Shown in pieces: positions 57,371 through 63,953 of a stretch of 64,000 nt of DNA. The stretch comes from Flammeovirgaceae bacterium UBA2338 (GTDB lineage Bacteria; Bacteroidota; Bacteroidia; Cytophagales; Cyclobacteriaceae), in NCBI GenBank assembly GCA_002344795.1, contig DDUM01000054.1, positions 66,062 to 130,061 on the forward strand, read 5' to 3'. How positions within the stretch are numbered: position 1 is the stretch's first letter; every line of letters starts with the position of its first letter. The notes beneath the pieces were generated by a model that was not told where the DNA came from, made no database searches, and worked only from the letters and a program-made list of their open reading frames with translations. The position numbers were made by a program, and so were the translations under genes.

Positions 57371-58588
57371 GTGAGACAAAAGGAAGCTAAGTATCAATTC
57401 GAAGCGGTGTTTAATCATGCCACAATTGGAATGATTATAGCCGATTCAGAAGGGAGAATCACACAGTTCAATCGGTTTGCCGAAACACAGTTTGGTTATT
57501 CTGAAGAAGAGGTCATTGGCGAATCAATAGAGATGCTGCTTCCAGTAGAGATGAAAGAGCGGCATATCCATCATCGTGACCAATTTATCAAAGCTCCATC
57601 CAATAGAGCAATGGGAGCGGGTAGAGATTTATTCGCAAAACGAAAAGACAACACAGTATTTCCTGTTGAGGTCAGCCTGAGCCATTTTAAGAAAGAAGAG
57701 GAGAGCTTTGTAATCGCATTTATTATAGATATCTCAGTAAGAAAAAAAAATGAAGCAGAGCTAGCGGAGTCCACAGAGAAGATAAAAATAATAAACACTG
57801 AGCTGGAGGAAAAGATAGACAGCAGAACCAAAATGCTGCGTGAGACCTTAGCAGAACTGGAGGCATCCAAAGAGAATTTGCATAAGGCGTTAAAAAAAGA
57901 AAGAGAATTAGGAGATCTTAAGTCCAGATTTGTAACCCTGGCCTCGCATGAGTTTAGAACTCCTTTAAGTACGATTTTGTTGTCAGCATCTTTAATAGGA
58001 AAATATACTTTAGAAGAGGAGGATGTAAAAAGACAAAAGCATGTTGACCGGATAAAAGAAGCAGTTAACAATATGCGTGACATTTTAGAAGACTTTCTGT
58101 CTTTAGGAAAATTGGAAGAAGGACAGGTGGATGTCAATATGGAATTACTATCCAATGAAGAACTAAAAGAAGAGCTCTATAAGGTGGTAAATAGTATGGA
58201 GCAGCTTCGTAAAGATGGGCAAAAAATCAACTTTGAGTGTAATGCAGATGCTGTAAAAGTCGACAAGAAGCTAATGGCAAGTGTTCTCTCCAACCTTCTT
58301 TCCAATGCAATAAAATTCAGCCCGGAGAACTCGAAAATTCAATTGAAATGTGAAATGAGTAATAATGTATTTCGTTTTATGGTAAAAGATGCTGGAATTG
58401 GCATATCAGAGGAGGACCAGCAACATCTATTCGAACGATTTTTTAGGGCTCAGAATGCATCCAATATACAAGGTACTGGGTTGGGCTTAAATATTGTATC
58501 CAAATACCTGGAGTTGATGGGGGGTAAAATAAACTGTAAAAGTGAGATAAATGTTGGGACTACCTTTTACATAGAAATTCCGCAATAA
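57371..58588 (+). CDS. PAS-domain sensor histidine kinase, FixL-like heme-PAS
   Basis: LLPxxxxxxH (His65) and AMGAGR (Arg85); HEFRTPL; NLLSNAIKF, DAGIG, GTGLGL; GTG start. Confidence 0.88.
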   Translation: MRQKEAKYQFEAVFNHATIGMIIADSEGRITQFNRFAETQFGYSEEEVIGESIEMLLPVEMKERHIHHRDQFIKAPSNRAMGAGRDLFAKRKDNTVFPVEVSLSHFKKEEESFVIAFIIDISVRKKNEAELAESTEKIKIINTELEEKIDSRTKMLRETLAELEASKENLHKALKKERELGDLKSRFVTLASHEFRTPLSTILLSASLIGKYTLEEEDVKRQKHVDRIKEAVNNMRDILEDFLSLGKLEEGQVDVNMELLSNEELKEELYKVVNSMEQLRKDGQKINFECNADAVKVDKKLMASVLSNLLSNAIKFSPENSKIQLKCEMSNNVFRFMVKDAGIGISEEDQQHLFERFFRAQNASNIQGTGLGLNIVSKYLELMGGKINCKSEINVGTTFYIEIPQ

Positions 58589-58635: not shown

Positions 58636-59694
58636 ATGAAAAACATTCTGATCATCGAAGATAACCTGGAGGTAAGGGAGAATACGGCTGAGATCCTTGA
58701 ATTGGCCGGCTACAAGGTGTTTACAGCAGAGAACGGTAAAATTGGAGTAGAAGTAGCCATTGATGAGAAGCCTGACCTAATTGTATGCGATATTATGATG
58801 CCTGTGCTGGATGGCTACGGGGTGCTTCATTTGCTCAGTAAAAACCCCGAAACCACAACTATCCCATTTATTTTTTTAACTGCAAAAGCAGAGAAAAGCG
58901 ACTATCAAAAGGGGATGGAAATGGGTGCGGATGGGTATATTTCTAAACCTTTTGATGACACTGAGCTTCTTAATGCAATCGAAACAAGGTTAAGAAAGAG
59001 TGAGATTCTGAAACGAAGCTATACTCATGACCAGGCGGGTGTAGATAGTTTTATTGATTCAGTAAAGTCAAGTACCAATATAAAATTGCTGTCAGACGGT
59101 TATGAGGTGGCTAAGTTCAAGAAAAAGCACTCCTTGTATTCTGAAGCAGGATATCCCCGGAATTTGTTTTTTGTAAAATCCGGAAAGGTAAAAACCTATA
59201 AAATCAACGAGGATGGCAAAGAGTTGATTATTGAGGTAAGCAGTACTGGAGACTTTGTAGGCTATACACCTATTTTGGAAGATACTATTTACAAAGATGC
59301 TGCTGAAATATTGGAGGATGCTGAGGTAATGATCATTCCTCGTGAGGATTTTGTTAACCTGATTAGCTACGATAGTCAGGTAGCTGGCCAGTTTATCAAA
59401 CTGCTTGCAAAAAATGTTAGAGAAAAAGAAGATCGGTTGCTTAGTCTGGCATATAACTCTGTGCGTAAACGTGTCGCTTCCGGTTTGATTGAAATATTTG
59501 ACAAGTTCAAAGGGGAGACGCAAGAGGACACCAGAATAAAAATATCACGCGATGATTTGGCAAGAATCGTAGGCACTGCAACAGAATCTTTAATCAGGAC
59601 CTTAAGCGATTTTAAAAGCGAAAAATTGATAGATATTGAATCTGGTAAAATACTTATCCTCCAGGAAAACAAGTTGAGGTATTTGTCCAATTAG
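58636..59694 (+). CDS. Response regulator fusing REC, cNMP-like and Crp/Fnr HTH domains
   Basis: IIED, CD52IMMP, FLTAK; second half YNSVRKRVA and ISRDDLARIVGTATESLIR. Confidence 0.9.
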   Translation: MKNILIIEDNLEVRENTAEILELAGYKVFTAENGKIGVEVAIDEKPDLIVCDIMMPVLDGYGVLHLLSKNPETTTIPFIFLTAKAEKSDYQKGMEMGADGYISKPFDDTELLNAIETRLRKSEILKRSYTHDQAGVDSFIDSVKSSTNIKLLSDGYEVAKFKKKHSLYSEAGYPRNLFFVKSGKVKTYKINEDGKELIIEVSSTGDFVGYTPILEDTIYKDAAEILEDAEVMIIPREDFVNLISYDSQVAGQFIKLLAKNVREKEDRLLSLAYNSVRKRVASGLIEIFDKFKGETQEDTRIKISRDDLARIVGTATESLIRTLSDFKSEKLIDIESGKILILQENKLRYLSN

Positions 59695-60050
59695 TGGTTA
59701 TTCATCAGTTCGGCTTCATGGTTCTGTCTTTCCAATGACCAATCTTCGGTTAATGAAGTTTCGATCCACATGGAGCCGGATTTGCGGTAAACCAGGCACA
59801 ATATTCCTGTTTTTTCAAGAACTATAGCTTTTAGCTGGGCTACGGTGGTGGAAGGGCTCAGATTTACAGAAATAGAATCTTTACTCAGTGGAAAGTTAGA
59901 AGCCAAAAGGGGGCCTGTTTTGTAATTCTTGCTATCAGAAGGATTTAATAGAGGTTTGAAAAACTCAATTTTTAAGAATGGAAAGAGCGTTGTGAAATCT
60001 TTCTGAAAACCACCTACTGATTTACCTTCATCAATTTTTAGAACCGGCAT
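59691..60050 (-). CDS. Hypothetical cytoplasmic protein
   Basis: FPFLKIEFF, TTVAQL, VYRKSG.MWIET.LT.DWSL..QN; start ATG 60050 or TTG 60068. Confidence 0.7.
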   Translation of the reverse strand: MPVLKIDEGKSVGGFQKDFTTLFPFLKIEFFKPLLNPSDSKNYKTGPLLASNFPLSKDSISVNLSPSTTVAQLKAIVLEKTGILCLVYRKSGSMWIETSLTEDWSLERQNHEAELMNNH

Positions 60051-60088: not shown

Positions 60089-60096
60089 CAAAGTTA
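60089..60096 (-). promoter_or_regulatory. -7 element TAACTTTG
   Basis: Exact TAnnTTTG on the minus strand, 23 nt from the proximal Fnr-type box. Confidence 0.65.
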
Positions 60097-60119
60097 ACTA
60101 CACACTGGCCGCATTTTAA

Positions 60120-60153
60120 TGATTGCTGTCAAGTTGGGCTATGATAAAAATCA
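60120..60153. promoter_or_regulatory. Tandem Fnr/FixK-type boxes
   Basis: TGATTGCTGTCA (60120-60131) and TGATAAAAATCA (60142-60153), 22-bp period. Confidence 0.7.
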
Positions 60154-60263
60154 CTTCATCATTAGGACTTACAATACACGCCCTAAAGTTGCTGCGAGAC
60201 CTGTTGCGAACATCCCTAAAATGGAACCCTTACTTTTTACTTTGGACACTAGTTTGGTTTCTA

Positions 60264-62627
60264 TCACAAATGTTCTGCGATCATGATATTTTCTATTCCC
60301 CTAATCATAGCATCTGGATTAAAGGAAATCGAGTCAATACCACACTCGACAAGAAACTTAGTATATTCCGGATAATCACTTGGAGCCTGACCACATAGCC
60401 CCACTTTTACACCGGCATTCTGCGCAGCGTCTATAAGGTGCTTGATTTGCGTTTTAATGGCTTCATTATTTTCATCAAATAGGTTGCTGACAATTGCTGA
60501 ATCGCGATCCAATCCCAGTGTGAGTTGTGTTAAATCATTAGAGCCAATGGAAAAGCCATCAAAAAGTGCGGCAAACTCTTTAGCCAGAATGATATTGCTG
60601 GGTATTTCAGCCATTACGTAAACCTCTAGTTTGTTTTGTCCCTGAACCAAACCATTTTTTTTCATTTCTTCTAATACTTTCTCTCCTTCCTGAATTGTTC
60701 TGCAAAAGGGGATCATTACCTTAACGTTGACCAGCCCCATATCATCTCTTAACTTTTTGATGGCTGCACATTCCAATGCAAATCCATCTCTATATCTTTC
60801 GTTGTAATACCTACTAGCCCCTCTGAATCCCAACATGGGATTTTCTTCTTCCGGTTCAAATGGTTTTCCACCCAGTAATTTTGCGTACTCATTTGATTTA
60901 AAATCACTCATTCTAACAATAACATCTTTTGGATAGAAGGCGGCTGCAACCAAAGCAAGGGACTCTGCAAGGGTATCAATAAAAAATTGTTTTTTGTCTT
61001 TATAATGCCTGGTGAGCAAGTCTATTTTACTTTTGTCTGAATCATCCATTAGCTCATTATATTTTACCAATGCCATCGGATGTACCTGTACGCTATTGTT
61101 GATGATAAACTCCATCCGCAGCAAGCCAACACCTTGATTGGGGTAGCTGGCGTGAAACAATGCTTTCTTAGGATCCGCCAGTATCAGCATGGGTTTTACC
61201 CTGGTGTTCTTCAGGTGTTCAAGGGATGTTTCCTTTACTTTCCATTCCAACTTTCCTTCATAAACAAACCCTTCATCACCACTTGCGCAGGACACTGTGA
61301 TGAGCTGATTGTCTTTCAACTTTTGCGTTGCGTAAAGTGTGCCCACCAGGGCGGGTATGCCAAGTTCGCGGGCAACAATAGAGGCGTGACTGGTTCGACC
61401 ACCTTGGTTTGTAACAATACACACCGCTTTTTTAAGCAATGCATTCCAGTCAGGGTTGGTTATGTCTGCAACAATAATATCGCCTTGTTTTACTTTTTTA
61501 CTATCAGCAAGACTTTCTACAATTGTTACTCTACCACTAACAATAGATTGACCAACCGCTTTGCCGCTTACAATTGGCACAGCATCTGTTTTTAGAGTGT
61601 ATTCTTTTAGGGTTATTGATTTCTGTTTTGCATGTATGGTTTCGGGGCGCGCCTGTACAATAAAAAGTTGATTATTTAATCCATCTTTTGCCCATTCTAT
61701 GTCCATTGGCATTTTGTAATGTTTCTCAATTTGATAACACCAATTTCCCAATTGTTCTATTTCTTTAGGAGTTAGCACATATTGATCTCTTAAATGAAAA
61801 GGGGTTTGCTTCCATTCTGTAGATCCATGTTCATTATAGACAACCATTTGTTGTTTGGAGCCCATAGTTCTGTATACGAGACTTTTCCTGTTTTGCTCAA
61901 GCAAAGGTTTTAACAGGTAGAATTCATCTGTATTCACTGCTCCTTGTACAACGCTTTCCCCCAATCCCCAGGCACCTGTAATGTAGATTAGATTCTTATT
62001 GCCGTTTTCAGGTTCAATGGTGAATGCTACTCCTGCACAACTTTTGTCAGAGCGTACCATCAACTGTATTCCCACTGATAGCCCCACCTGATCATGCTTA
62101 AAACCATTGTCGATTCGGTATTTAATAGCCCTGTCATTATACAAAGAAGTGTAACACCCCATTACAGCTGTGTATAATTGATCTATGCCCCGTACATTCA
62201 GAAATGAATCATGCTGACCAGCAAAACTGGCTTCTGGTGAATCTTCTGCTATTCCACTACTGCGTACAGCAAAAGTAACCTCCTCCCCATAGGTACTGAT
62301 GATCTTTTGATAAGCCGATTGTAATGATGCTTTGACGTCAGTTGGTAATGTGGCCTTGCTTACAATGTCTCTGCAATAGTTTCCAATTTCTGATAAATTA
62401 TCCATAGAGGATAATTCAAGTGAACTAAGTTTGACTTCGAGGAGTTCTCCCAGCTTATTCGAATCTATAAATTTTACGAAGGCATCAGCGGTAAGGGCAA
62501 ACCCATCAGGGATATTGATATCATATTGAGACAGGCTTTGAATCATCTCACCAAGAGATCCATTTTTACCTCCAACTAGAGGAAGATCCCTCATCGTTAT
62601 TTTTGAAAACGGAATTATATAATTCAT
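60264..62627 (-). CDS. ppsA: Phosphoenolpyruvate synthase
   Basis: VGGKNGSLGEM, AVRSS..EDS..ASFAGQ, GAWGLGE, DIEWAKD, GGRTSHA, EENPMLGFRGA, SIGSNDLTQ. Confidence 0.95.
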   Translation of the reverse strand: MNYIIPFSKITMRDLPLVGGKNGSLGEMIQSLSQYDINIPDGFALTADAFVKFIDSNKLGELLEVKLSSLELSSMDNLSEIGNYCRDIVSKATLPTDVKASLQSAYQKIISTYGEEVTFAVRSSGIAEDSPEASFAGQHDSFLNVRGIDQLYTAVMGCYTSLYNDRAIKYRIDNGFKHDQVGLSVGIQLMVRSDKSCAGVAFTIEPENGNKNLIYITGAWGLGESVVQGAVNTDEFYLLKPLLEQNRKSLVYRTMGSKQQMVVYNEHGSTEWKQTPFHLRDQYVLTPKEIEQLGNWCYQIEKHYKMPMDIEWAKDGLNNQLFIVQARPETIHAKQKSITLKEYTLKTDAVPIVSGKAVGQSIVSGRVTIVESLADSKKVKQGDIIVADITNPDWNALLKKAVCIVTNQGGRTSHASIVARELGIPALVGTLYATQKLKDNQLITVSCASGDEGFVYEGKLEWKVKETSLEHLKNTRVKPMLILADPKKALFHASYPNQGVGLLRMEFIINNSVQVHPMALVKYNELMDDSDKSKIDLLTRHYKDKKQFFIDTLAESLALVAAAFYPKDVIVRMSDFKSNEYAKLLGGKPFEPEEENPMLGFRGASRYYNERYRDGFALECAAIKKLRDDMGLVNVKVMIPFCRTIQEGEKVLEEMKKNGLVQGQNKLEVYVMAEIPSNIILAKEFAALFDGFSIGSNDLTQLTLGLDRDSAIVSNLFDENNEAIKTQIKHLIDAAQNAGVKVGLCGQAPSDYPEYTKFLVECGIDSISFNPDAMIRGIENIMIAEHL

Positions 62628-62679
62628 TGGATTCTATTTTAAGGGAGAGTAAAATACAGAACTATTCACCACGGTGAGA

Positions 62680-62713
62680 TGATAACCATCAAGACACCGA
62701 ATGATAAAGGTCA
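62680..62713. promoter_or_regulatory. Tandem Fnr/FixK-type boxes upstream of ppsA
   Basis: TGATAACCATCA (62680-62691) and TGATAAAGGTCA (62702-62713), 22-bp period. Confidence 0.7.
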
Positions 62714-63772
62714 ATTTTGAATGCTTGATGTACCTAAAAGCACCGACCAGGTTTTCAGTTTTGGCGAGTTATCAACGATAAGCTTGGCGATGGCAAGAAA
62801 AGGCACAAATAGAATCATGCCTGCAACACCCCAGATAATGCCACCAACAACGATTGCACTAATTGTAGCTAAGGCATTGATTTTCAATTTATTGCTAACA
62901 GCAAGTGGAAATATTAGGTTGGCTTCCAGGTATTGAACAAGGGAGAACAAAAAAACAACCCCTATTGGATACCAAATTGAATTGTAAGTGATCCATGACA
63001 TGGTCATGGGTAAGAGTGCCCCAACCATAATACCGACATAAGGGATGAAGGTAAGAATGGCCGCAGTATAGCCGAAGAAAATAGCATGAGGTACGCCCAA
63101 TACAAGTAATCCAACACTGTTTAATGTACCTACAGCAAGGTAAACAATACCCATACCTTTAATGAAGTTGTAATAGGCCGTAATGGTTTGACTGAGAACA
63201 GCTTTGATGCCTACTCGGCTTTCTATCGGGAAAATCATATACAAGGCCTTCACCAGCCTTTTTCTGTAAAAAAGTATAAGTGTTGAGTATATGGGAACCA
63301 GAATAAGCAAAACTGCAGATAGACTATAAGTGGATATCAAATGCCGAATAAGAGTAAACAAATTACCACTAGATTGATTGAGAATTTGGGTGAGGAGCTC
63401 ATTTTGCCGTATACGACTAACACCAAAAGTGGTGAATATATAGCCGCTGAATTGTTCGATAACTTCGAGGAGTTTTACTTTGATTACGGGCCACTCTGAA
63501 ATGAAGGTAGTAAACTGATATACCAATAGGAGGATTATTGCGGCTCCAAAAAGAATAACAACCGACATACTAAAAAGTATCGAAGCCATTCTGTTAATTG
63601 ATTTGCCTTCCAGCCACACACAAATGGGGTAGAGTACGAAACTAATCAGGACAGCAAAACTTAATGGAATAAAAAATGTGCGTCCGAAATACAGGATTAC
63701 GGATCCAAAAAAAACAGCTTGTAAAGCGACCAGATAACTATTGTTCCCTTTTGGAAGTGAGCGCAGTCCCAT
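62711..63772 (-). CDS. AI-2E (PerM/UPF0118) family transporter
   Basis: FFIPLSFA, PICVWLE, FIPYVG, VQYLEANLIFP, IWGVAGMILFVP. Confidence 0.9.
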   Translation of the reverse strand: MGLRSLPKGNNSYLVALQAVFFGSVILYFGRTFFIPLSFAVLISFVLYPICVWLEGKSINRMASILFSMSVVILFGAAIILLLVYQFTTFISEWPVIKVKLLEVIEQFSGYIFTTFGVSRIRQNELLTQILNQSSGNLFTLIRHLISTYSLSAVLLILVPIYSTLILFYRKRLVKALYMIFPIESRVGIKAVLSQTITAYYNFIKGMGIVYLAVGTLNSVGLLVLGVPHAIFFGYTAAILTFIPYVGIMVGALLPMTMSWITYNSIWYPIGVVFLFSLVQYLEANLIFPLAVSNKLKINALATISAIVVGGIIWGVAGMILFVPFLAIAKLIVDNSPKLKTWSVLLGTSSIQN

Positions 63773-63898
63773 TTGATTGATAATTATAATTTTTTTTTAA
63801 GAAAAGGAATCAATAGCCTTGGATATTCCATGACTTTCAGATTTCAAAATATGAACAGTACGATTGTGCATATTAAAACGACTGACCCCATTATTCTA

Positions 63899-63953
63899 TG
63901 ATAACAGTAAGTCAGGTGAATGATAAAAGTCAGTAAATAATTGATAAAAGTGT
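63899..63953. promoter_or_regulatory. Three phased Fnr/FixK-type boxes upstream of the AI-2E gene
   Basis: TGATAACAGTAA (63899), TGATAAAAGTCA (63921), TGATAAAAGTGT (63942); periods 22 and 21 bp. Confidence 0.6.

Follow-up and report, generated by a model that had tools for sequence, protein, structure and literature searches.

Tandem FNR-type operators in Bacteroidota and their probable reading by a receiver-Crp regulator encoded beside a FixL-like kinase

Introduction

The closest described relatives of the promoters reported here are the class II promoters of FNR and FixK in Proteobacteria, which use a single operator of the TTGAT-N4-ATCAA type. Two dimers of one family at one promoter are known from the class III tandem arrangements of CRP and FNR in E. 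coli; there the upstream dimer lies at about -85 to -103, not abutting its partner at -63.5, and the arrangement belongs to individual promoters rather than being a family-wide rule. Here we analyze a window of 64,000 nucleotides from Flammeovirgaceae bacterium UBA2338 (contig DDUM01000054.1, positions 66,062 to 130,061), which is part of contig 13 of a 4.16-Mb genome (G000). In this window three minus-strand genes, encoding a hypothetical protein of 119 amino acids (aa), phosphoenolpyruvate (PEP) synthase (ppsA) and an AI-2E family transporter, have a plus-strand two-component pair upstream, namely a PAS histidine kinase and a regulator in which a receiver (REC) is fused to a Crp module (REC-Crp). 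Paired boxes stand before the three genes, and we consider it likely that they serve as operators for a branch of the Crp/Fnr family in Bacteroidota and are read here by the adjacent REC-Crp under the control of a FixL-like kinase.

The promoters of Bacteroidota are of the -7/-33 type, and a genome-wide start-site map of Flavobacterium psychrophilum places the -7 element TAnnTTTG at -12 to -5 (PMC9723704). A flavobacterial transcriptome study reports that cbb3 oxidase is induced when oxygen is limiting; neither Fnr nor Crp was found in its main text by word search. A 2026 preprint on F. johnsoniae RgzAB cites FixL in passing only. Our literature search on REC-Crp fusions, Fnr regulons of Bacteroidota, tandem FNR boxes and TAnnTTTG in combination with Fnr found no description of such a system in the literature collection covered.

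Results

Tandem boxes lie at a fixed distance from the -7 element

A sequence-only reading of the window had reported box pairs spaced by 22 bp at three adjacent promoters, each separated by 23 nt from a TA-initiated octamer on the minus strand. Exact TGAT-N4-RTCA boxes start at 60120 (TGATTGCTGTCA), 60142 (TGATAAAAATCA), 62680 (TGATAACCATCA), 62702 (TGATAAAGGTCA) and 63921 (TGATAAAAGTCA). Hence the pairs 60120/60142 and 62680/62702 stand as described, while at 63899/63921 the spacing holds but the box at 63899 (TGATAACAGTAA) has one mismatch to RTCA. The weaker box at 63942 (TGATAAAAGTGT) had been placed among the 22-bp spacings, which is incorrect, as its distance from 63921 is 21 bp. The gap of 23 nt is arithmetically right for the octamers at 60096, 62656 and 63875, two of which are weak as -7 elements. 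The octamer at 60096-60089 (TAACTTTG) matches all six specified positions of TAnnTTTG and is the only consensus -7 element of the three. No other tandem pair was found in the window, in agreement with the same reading; further pairs lie just past its 3' end. The elements are as follows.

60089..60096, minus strand: -7 element TAACTTTG (6/6), read directly; predicted start ~60084, from geometry
60120..60131, unstranded: proximal box, on the gene strand TGACAGCAATCA, predicted centre -41.5; the genome's top composite site (31.4 bits)
60142..60153, unstranded: distal box TGATAAAAATCA, predicted centre -63.5; read directly and found by box scan
62649..62656, minus strand: weak -7-like element TATTTTAC (4/6), read directly; predicted start ~62644
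62680..62691, unstranded: proximal box of the ppsA promoter, TGATAACCATCA; composite score 26.1 bits
62702..62713, unstranded: distal box for ppsA, TGATAAAGGTCA; overlaps with the TGA that terminates the AI-2E gene
63868..63875, minus strand: poor -7-like element TAATATGC (3/6), read directly and identical in the relative L003; predicted start ~63863
63899..63910, unstranded: imperfect proximal box, on the gene strand TTACTGTTATCA; its mismatch lies in the upstream half, the usual kind in proximal boxes
63921..63932, unstranded: perfect box TGATAAAAGTCA; the distal one of the minus-strand promoter and perhaps the proximal one of a plus-strand P-type ATPase operon
63942..63953, unstranded: degenerate third box TGATAAAAGTGT; not kept in L003

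The core TGAY-N4-RTCA is found in five of the seven boxes and across species, and by comparison with the TTGAT-N4-ATCAA palindrome the boxes classify as putative operators of the FNR/FixK type; the outer T and A of that palindrome are weakly kept in the cross-species comparison. At ppsA the overlap with the stop codon means that operator and coding sequence share bases.

With the -7 element at -12 to -5, a gap of 23 nt puts the proximal box at -47 to -36, its centre at -41.5, and the centre of the distal box at -63.5. The starts on the minus strand are accordingly predicted from octamer geometry at ~60084, 62644 and 63863. The proximal box had earlier been put near -42, and the fixed gap together with the published -7 position refines this to -41.5, which, for predicted starts, we infer to be the place that FNR and CRP classically occupy at class II promoters. 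A cross-species alignment of the sites contained no conserved -33 element or spacer sequence in the gap between box and -7 element, and the lack of a -33 element fits an activator-dependent class II layout.

The spacing stands out in the window and in the genome

The tandem pattern, with at most one mismatch, was scored against 100 shuffles of the window. Three matches are present where 0.03 are expected, and none of the 100 shuffles reached three. The whole genome holds 427 exact boxes, which form nine pairs within 100 bp, and five of these are exactly 22 bp apart. When one mismatch per box is allowed, the pairs peak at 13 for a distance of 22 bp over a background of about 3–4. At the three exact pairs outside the window a TA-initiated octamer (TACTTTTG, TACATTTA and TAAGTTGT) is again found 23 nt off the nearer box. 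We also built a composite position-weight model (box, N10, box, N23, -7 element) trained only on other species. This model yields 25 sites above 14 bits in the genome, compared to 0–5 when either spacing is altered. The genome scan, which had been proposed as a check, thus places the tandem pairs above background frequency.

The layout is conserved around REC-Crp orthologues

Orthologues of REC-Crp occur in at least 583 species records, with 83–95% identity in Cyclobacteriaceae and ~56–64% in Chitinophagaceae. We compared 80 loci (1.29 Mb) around such orthologues in 80 other Bacteroidota species. Of the 61 box pairs found there at distances up to 100 bp, 39 have a spacing of exactly 22 bp, and in many species the sites cluster within 10 kb of the orthologue. 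A sigma-A -7 element matching TAnnTTTG at five or more of six positions was found beside the 44 exact tandem sites 44 times at a gap of 23 nt, 5 times at 22, 7 times at 24 and 0–4 times elsewhere. At 16 of the 44 sites such elements lie 22–24 nt out on both sides; a single 34-bp unit is then predicted to serve a divergent promoter pair, with a different box lying closer to the -7 element in each direction.

The second box is also seen at promoters chosen solely by a proximal box, the 23-nt gap and a -7 element. Among 132 such promoters from other species, 83 have a second box with at most one mismatch exactly 22 bp upstream and another 16 have one with two mismatches, other offsets giving 0–4. 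In a phylum-wide sample of 301 genomes, the tandem pattern is present in 37 and a reversed-pattern control in none; full-length REC-Crp is encoded in 41, and both are found in 21. In the genome G064 of this sample four pattern matches are false positives unrelated to the regulon; they stem from a repeat (TGATTTTGATCACTGATTTCGCTGATTTTGATCA and its variants) found at the ends of contigs. The recurrence of the 22-bp/23-nt layout around orthologues in other families agrees with the initial proposal, which had tied FNR/FixK-type operators to the neighbouring REC-Crp.

The kinase and the regulator

57371..58588, plus strand: PAS histidine kinase, FixL-like haem-PAS sensor and likely partner of the regulator; Pfam PAS, HisKA and HATPase_c
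58636..59694, plus strand: REC-cNMP_binding-HTH_Crp hybrid response regulator, 352 aa; Pfam Response_reg, cNMP_binding and HTH_Crp_2

The closest relatives of the kinase PAS domain among all solved structures are the haem domains of FixL (E 2e-15), and both the proximal His and the distal Arg of FixL are aligned (ERH/SRH and GAGR/GIGR). These are the marks of a FixL-type oxygen sensor, and haem binding is thus predicted. The gene of the regulator follows 47 bp after the end of the kinase gene. Its product was recognized by Pfam as Response_reg (3.7e-28), cNMP_binding (3e-16) and HTH_Crp_2 (8.5e-13), the last two above their cut-offs; with a cNMP-binding-like beta-roll followed by a C-terminal helix-turn-helix (HTH) of the Crp type it is assigned to the Crp/Fnr superfamily. 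Residues 1–116 form the receiver domain, in which the motifs IIEDN...LIVCDIMMP...FLTA...SKPF are readable and Asp52 is the putative phospho-acceptor. Receiver and adjoining kinase together identify a two-component response regulator, for which we predict phosphotransfer.

REC-Crp is neither FNR proper nor FixK. It has no N-terminal cysteine cluster (a single Cys within the first 160 residues) and scores 72 bits with the NCBIfam Fnr model against a cut-off of 228, and it is fused to a receiver and scores 74.6 bits with the FixK model against a cut-off of 300. No model of NCBIfam names the protein or attains its threshold with it, the Crp part being nearest to FixK/Fnr/CRP. As to autoregulation, no exact box was found upstream of the kinase and regulator genes.

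One DNA-binding module is shared by three sensor forms

Within the class, all eight genomes that have the pattern without REC-Crp carry a stand-alone homologue of its Crp module (E 1e-32 to 1e-41); the genomes with neither feature mostly have homologues at 1e-18 to 1e-29 or nothing, with two exceptions from one genus. Two Chitinophagales bins encode a 235-aa Fnr-like form with an N-terminal cysteine cluster beside fixI and ccoN. The 30 loci around relatives of this form contain 29 box pairs; 25 of them have the 22-bp spacing, and the 23-nt gap recurs there too. The 235-aa protein with the cluster VDCKHCSNRFNSVFC is seen at L083:8910-9617 and in L091-L108 (Chitinophagales and Saprospirales bins), where conserved tandem boxes lie upstream of ccoN and of a 162-aa gene of unknown family.

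The third form is found in G135, a member of the Cyclobacteriaceae, where a 229-aa FixK-like Crp protein closes an operon behind a tandem site (L081:5067-9100). The operon encodes DUF4136, a cNMP-domain protein, a HisKA_3 kinase with two PAS domains, a NarL/FixJ-type regulator and the Crp protein, and the first PAS domain of the kinase has Leu at the position of the distal Arg in FixL. By gene content this operon appears to be an unfused, FixL-FixJ-FixK-like counterpart of the REC-Crp system.

The helix GTAxExxIRxLSxF is common to REC-Crp and to the cysteine-cluster and G135 forms, and the other Crp paralogues of this genome differ from it; the HTH motif GTATESLIRTLSDF of REC-Crp is likewise common to the stand-alone homologues. 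As the helix is shared by all three sensor forms, the tandem operator would belong to the DNA-binding module, whatever the sensor. Stand-alone regulators beside tandem sites elsewhere are closest to REC-Crp and not to the paralogues of this genome, in which REC-Crp is the only member of the Crp subfamily that co-occurs with tandem boxes. Since homologues without a receiver use the same layout, the pairing is not a consequence of the fusion. This also weakens a scheme in which dimerization of receivers joins two Crp dimers into a tetramer.

Predicted targets

Targets were taken as the genes behind predicted sites in this genome and as the first genes behind tandem promoters elsewhere. Those in the window are the following.

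59691..60050, minus strand: short gene with its ATG at 60050, hypothetical product of 119 aa, transcribed toward the regulator gene; no Pfam or NCBIfam match
60264..62627, minus strand: ppsA (PEP synthase), predicted target; Pfam PPDK_N, PEP-utilizers and PEP-utilizers_C
62711..63772, minus strand: AI-2E family transporter, predicted target; Pfam AI-2E_transport

The 119-aa gene is the most conserved of the predicted local targets of the regulator, being kept together with its tandem site in L001-L007, and its homologues are the first gene behind tandem promoters in 11 loci. The ppsA site is kept in L003. Apart from this genome, a single close relative has ppsA as a predicted target, so that the gene is probably a lineage-specific recruit. 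An AI-2E gene is also behind a tandem promoter in the Chitinophagaceae locus L035.

Outside the window, the targets in this genome include a tandem-Usp gene with FixI and FixS, a Crp paralogue with cytochrome c and NosZ, and genes for YceI, OsmC, a Dps-like ferritin, DUF302, DUF4136, DUF6448, a GAPDH-like protein and further Usp proteins; just past the window follows a P-type ATPase with HPF and Usp. In other species we find cytochrome c heading nosZ operons (23 loci), a divergent Rrf2 regulator (22), CcoN-FixO (10), FixI (9), FixS, HemN-like (7), ScdA/RIC (10), Hsp20 (10) and Usp, and also YceI, ferritin and the AI-2E transporter. By their annotation the predicted targets are a low-oxygen, denitrification and stasis set, which in this genome would amount to some 15–25 operons. 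The presence of cbb3 maturation genes, nosZ and Usp among them, together with the FixL-like PAS domain of the kinase, supports the link to hypoxia made in the sequence-only reading. We conclude that in this genome the low-oxygen set is most likely switched on by the adjacent REC-Crp, as predicted from sites and gene content.

Three further observations concern the targets. A single 34-bp tandem unit with -7 elements 23 nt away on either side forms a conserved two-way promoter in L013 and in 22 further loci of Chitinophagaceae, where it separates the gene of an Rrf2-family regulator from that of a cytochrome c. A cytochrome c-NosZ operon (clade II type) on contig 87 (8246-12000) has as its first gene another member of the Crp family, of 205 aa, and stands behind a predicted site, which suggests a cascade like that of FixK and NnrR. 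Finally, a low-oxygen island runs past the window (contig 13, 130065-140000; window 64004 onward). It encodes a P-type cation ATPase, HPF (ribosome hibernation factor), two tandem-Usp proteins, a 208-aa coiled-coil-like protein and an AAA_33 kinase, and has further tandem sites at contig 13 positions 133074, 134957, 137413 and 139828.

The third site is altered by a deletion

Compared to L003, a 95%-identical relative, and to L002, ∼360 bp are missing between the AI-2E gene and the promoter (blastn). In the relatives the missing stretch is a DUF302 gene (window 63773-63898 against L003:15059-15620), of which a remnant is left in the window.

63823..63831, minus strand: remnant DUF302 start ATGGAATAT, first codons only; blastn against L003 and L002

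The third site thus appears to have originally headed the DUF302 gene, which is deleted here. It is also divergent, as the plus-strand P-type ATPase-HPF-Usp operon starts at window 64004; read on the plus strand toward the ATPase gene, it scores 14.1 bits only and has a poor -7 element. Both points correct the sequence-only reading, which had linked the third promoter to an AI-2E transporter. Another DUF302 gene, on contig 77, has a predicted tandem site of its own.

Discussion

A possible mechanism

We propose that the FixL-like haem-PAS kinase would sense low oxygen and phosphorylate the receiver. The activated regulator would then bind two 12-bp palindromes (TGAY-N4-RTCA) that share a helical face, their centres being separated by 22 bp. 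The dimer nearer the promoter, at -41.5, would adjoin RNA polymerase and act as a class II activator at -7 promoters with no conserved -33 element, and the upstream dimer at -63.5 would stabilize it. At two-way promoters the upstream dimer would be the -41.5 dimer of the opposite gene.

Cooperative binding as a dimer of dimers is plausible from the exact 22-bp phasing and from the distribution of mismatches. One-way promoters are more frequent than two-way promoters (182 vs 24), and among the 182 an imperfect proximal box is combined with a perfect distal box in 68 cases and the reverse in 37. Mismatches of proximal boxes fall in the upstream half, the promoter-side TCA being nearly invariant. 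More degenerate proximal boxes fit a strong upstream dimer that helps a weaker promoter-side dimer, and the third site of the window (TTACTGTTATCA) matches this pattern.

More tentatively, at a level of belief that falls a little short of even, we envisage that this Bacteroidota branch of the Crp/Fnr family acts as an obligate dimer pair on a 34-bp bipartite operator, which would replace the -33 element and could fire two divergent promoters. One module would take its oxygen signal in three ways, through an iron-sulfur cluster, through a FixLJ-like pair that is not fused to it or through a fused receiver. In Cytophagales and Chitinophagales, REC-Crp would then control microaerobic respiration, N2O reduction and the genes of stasis as a master switch acting in one step.

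Alternative explanations

The box core is short and AT-rich, and in G064 it was matched through a repeated element, so that chance or AT-rich intergenic composition has to be considered. The expectation of 0.03 in the window, the empty reversed control (0 of 301 genomes), the fall from 25 sites to 0–5 on shifting the spacing and the sharp peaks at 22 bp and 23 nt rule this out, and its probability is negligible. Binding by a LytTR-type response regulator to direct repeats phased at ∼21–22 bp, a phase typical of these regulators, is extremely improbable as well and was rejected: the boxes are individually inverted repeats like those of FNR, the genes beside the sites include none for such a regulator, and the sites track the Crp subfamily. 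A more serious question is whether the operators are real but read by another Crp/Fnr paralogue, REC-Crp being a mere neighbour. Candidates are a 211-aa protein of contig 36 with the canonical FNR helix E--SR and the nosZ-linked 205-aa protein; such paralogues have Glu and Arg in the recognition helix, and the nosZ-linked one is itself behind a predicted site, as in cascades of the FixK-NnrR type. However, they are only 22–25% identical to the Crp module and do not have the GTAxExxIRxLSxF helix, stand-alone regulators beside tandem sites elsewhere are closest to REC-Crp, and the sites in many species cluster within 10 kb of its orthologues, all of which makes this quite improbable. Somewhat less remote, though still unlikely, is that REC-Crp is the right regulator but binds two independent single-dimer sites, the pairing being a relic of two-way promoters with no cooperativity. 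The 16 of 44 exact sites with -7 elements 22–24 nt out on both sides speak for this, as do the tandem sites of regulators that lack a receiver, for which no receiver-driven tetramer is required. Against it, most tandem promoters are one-way and still have the second box at 22 bp, and the distal box is better on average, which is hard to explain if it is idle.

We therefore return to REC-Crp reading the paired boxes under the FixL-like kinase as the probable explanation, against which several observations weigh. The box at 63899 is imperfect, and with 4/6 and 3/6 matches to TAnnTTTG two of the three -7 octamers (TATTTTAC and TAATATGC) are weak. Within the class, 21 genomes have both pattern and REC-Crp, 8 the pattern only, 19 REC-Crp only and 27 neither, which is a moderate link, and some 20 genomes with REC-Crp are without an exact tandem. 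Many of the compared loci are metagenome bins of related taxa and the raw counts ignore phylogeny, so that they are not counts of independent events. In addition, three paralogues with Glu and Arg in the recognition helix, on contigs 36 (...REVVSRL), 87 (...VETVIRA) and 28 (...PESLSRI), might read similar half-sites.

Significance

In environmental Bacteroidota, control by oxygen of respiration, of N2O reduction (clade II nosZ) and of dormancy-type genes has had no described regulator. The REC-Crp family is a candidate master regulator with orthologues in at least 583 species records, and its sharply defined operator could be used to predict regulons in hundreds of genomes. Abutting dimers at -41.5 and -63.5 on a promoter type without a -33 element offer a testable mechanism, and a single DNA-reading head joined to three different oxygen inputs would illustrate how modular sensing evolves.

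Comparison with known systems

The promoters resemble the class II promoters of proteobacterial FNR and FixK in the TGAT-N4-ATCA core, the predicted centre at -41.5, the Glu/Arg recognition helix and the targets (cbb3 oxidase and its maturation, hemN, denitrification genes and Usp). They differ in that the single site is as a rule joined by another one exactly 22 bp upstream (in about two thirds of promoters), that the outer T/A is not kept, that the promoters are of the Bacteroidota -7/-33 type with no -33 element, and that one 34-bp unit often drives two divergent promoters. From the E. coli class III tandem promoters of CRP and FNR they share the use of two same-family dimers, one at -41.5 and one further upstream.

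On the protein side, the FixL-FixJ-FixK system of rhizobia and Caulobacter is similar in its haem-PAS kinase with the His and Arg of FixL, in a FixK-like DNA-binding module and in the content of the regulon, and G135 has the same order of unfused kinase, NarL/FixJ-type regulator and Crp protein. In REC-Crp, unlike FixLJK, the receiver is fused to the Crp module, and one phosphotransfer would replace the step in which FixJ activates fixK; unlike FixL, the kinase has a HisKA and not a HisKA_3 dimerization domain. REC-Crp shares with E. coli FNR the beta-roll, the dimerization helix and the HTH, and in both an N-terminal sensory module could control dimer formation, but a receiver replaces the N-terminal cysteine cluster. 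Versions of the subfamily that do have a cysteine cluster, in Chitinophagales bins, use the same tandem boxes. The DosS/DosT-DosR system of Mycobacterium also induces Usp, Hsp20-type and hibernation genes in hypoxia through haem kinases and a response regulator. This likeness is functional only, as the output domain of DosR is of the LuxR type and its operator differs.

Taken together, the FNR-type boxes, the class II placement, the FixL-like sensor and the Crp/Fnr output are, as predicted here, of known kinds. What is unusual is the near-obligatory second box at 22 bp, the use of -7/-33 promoters without the -33 element, the two-way use of one operator unit and the fusion of a receiver to a Crp module.

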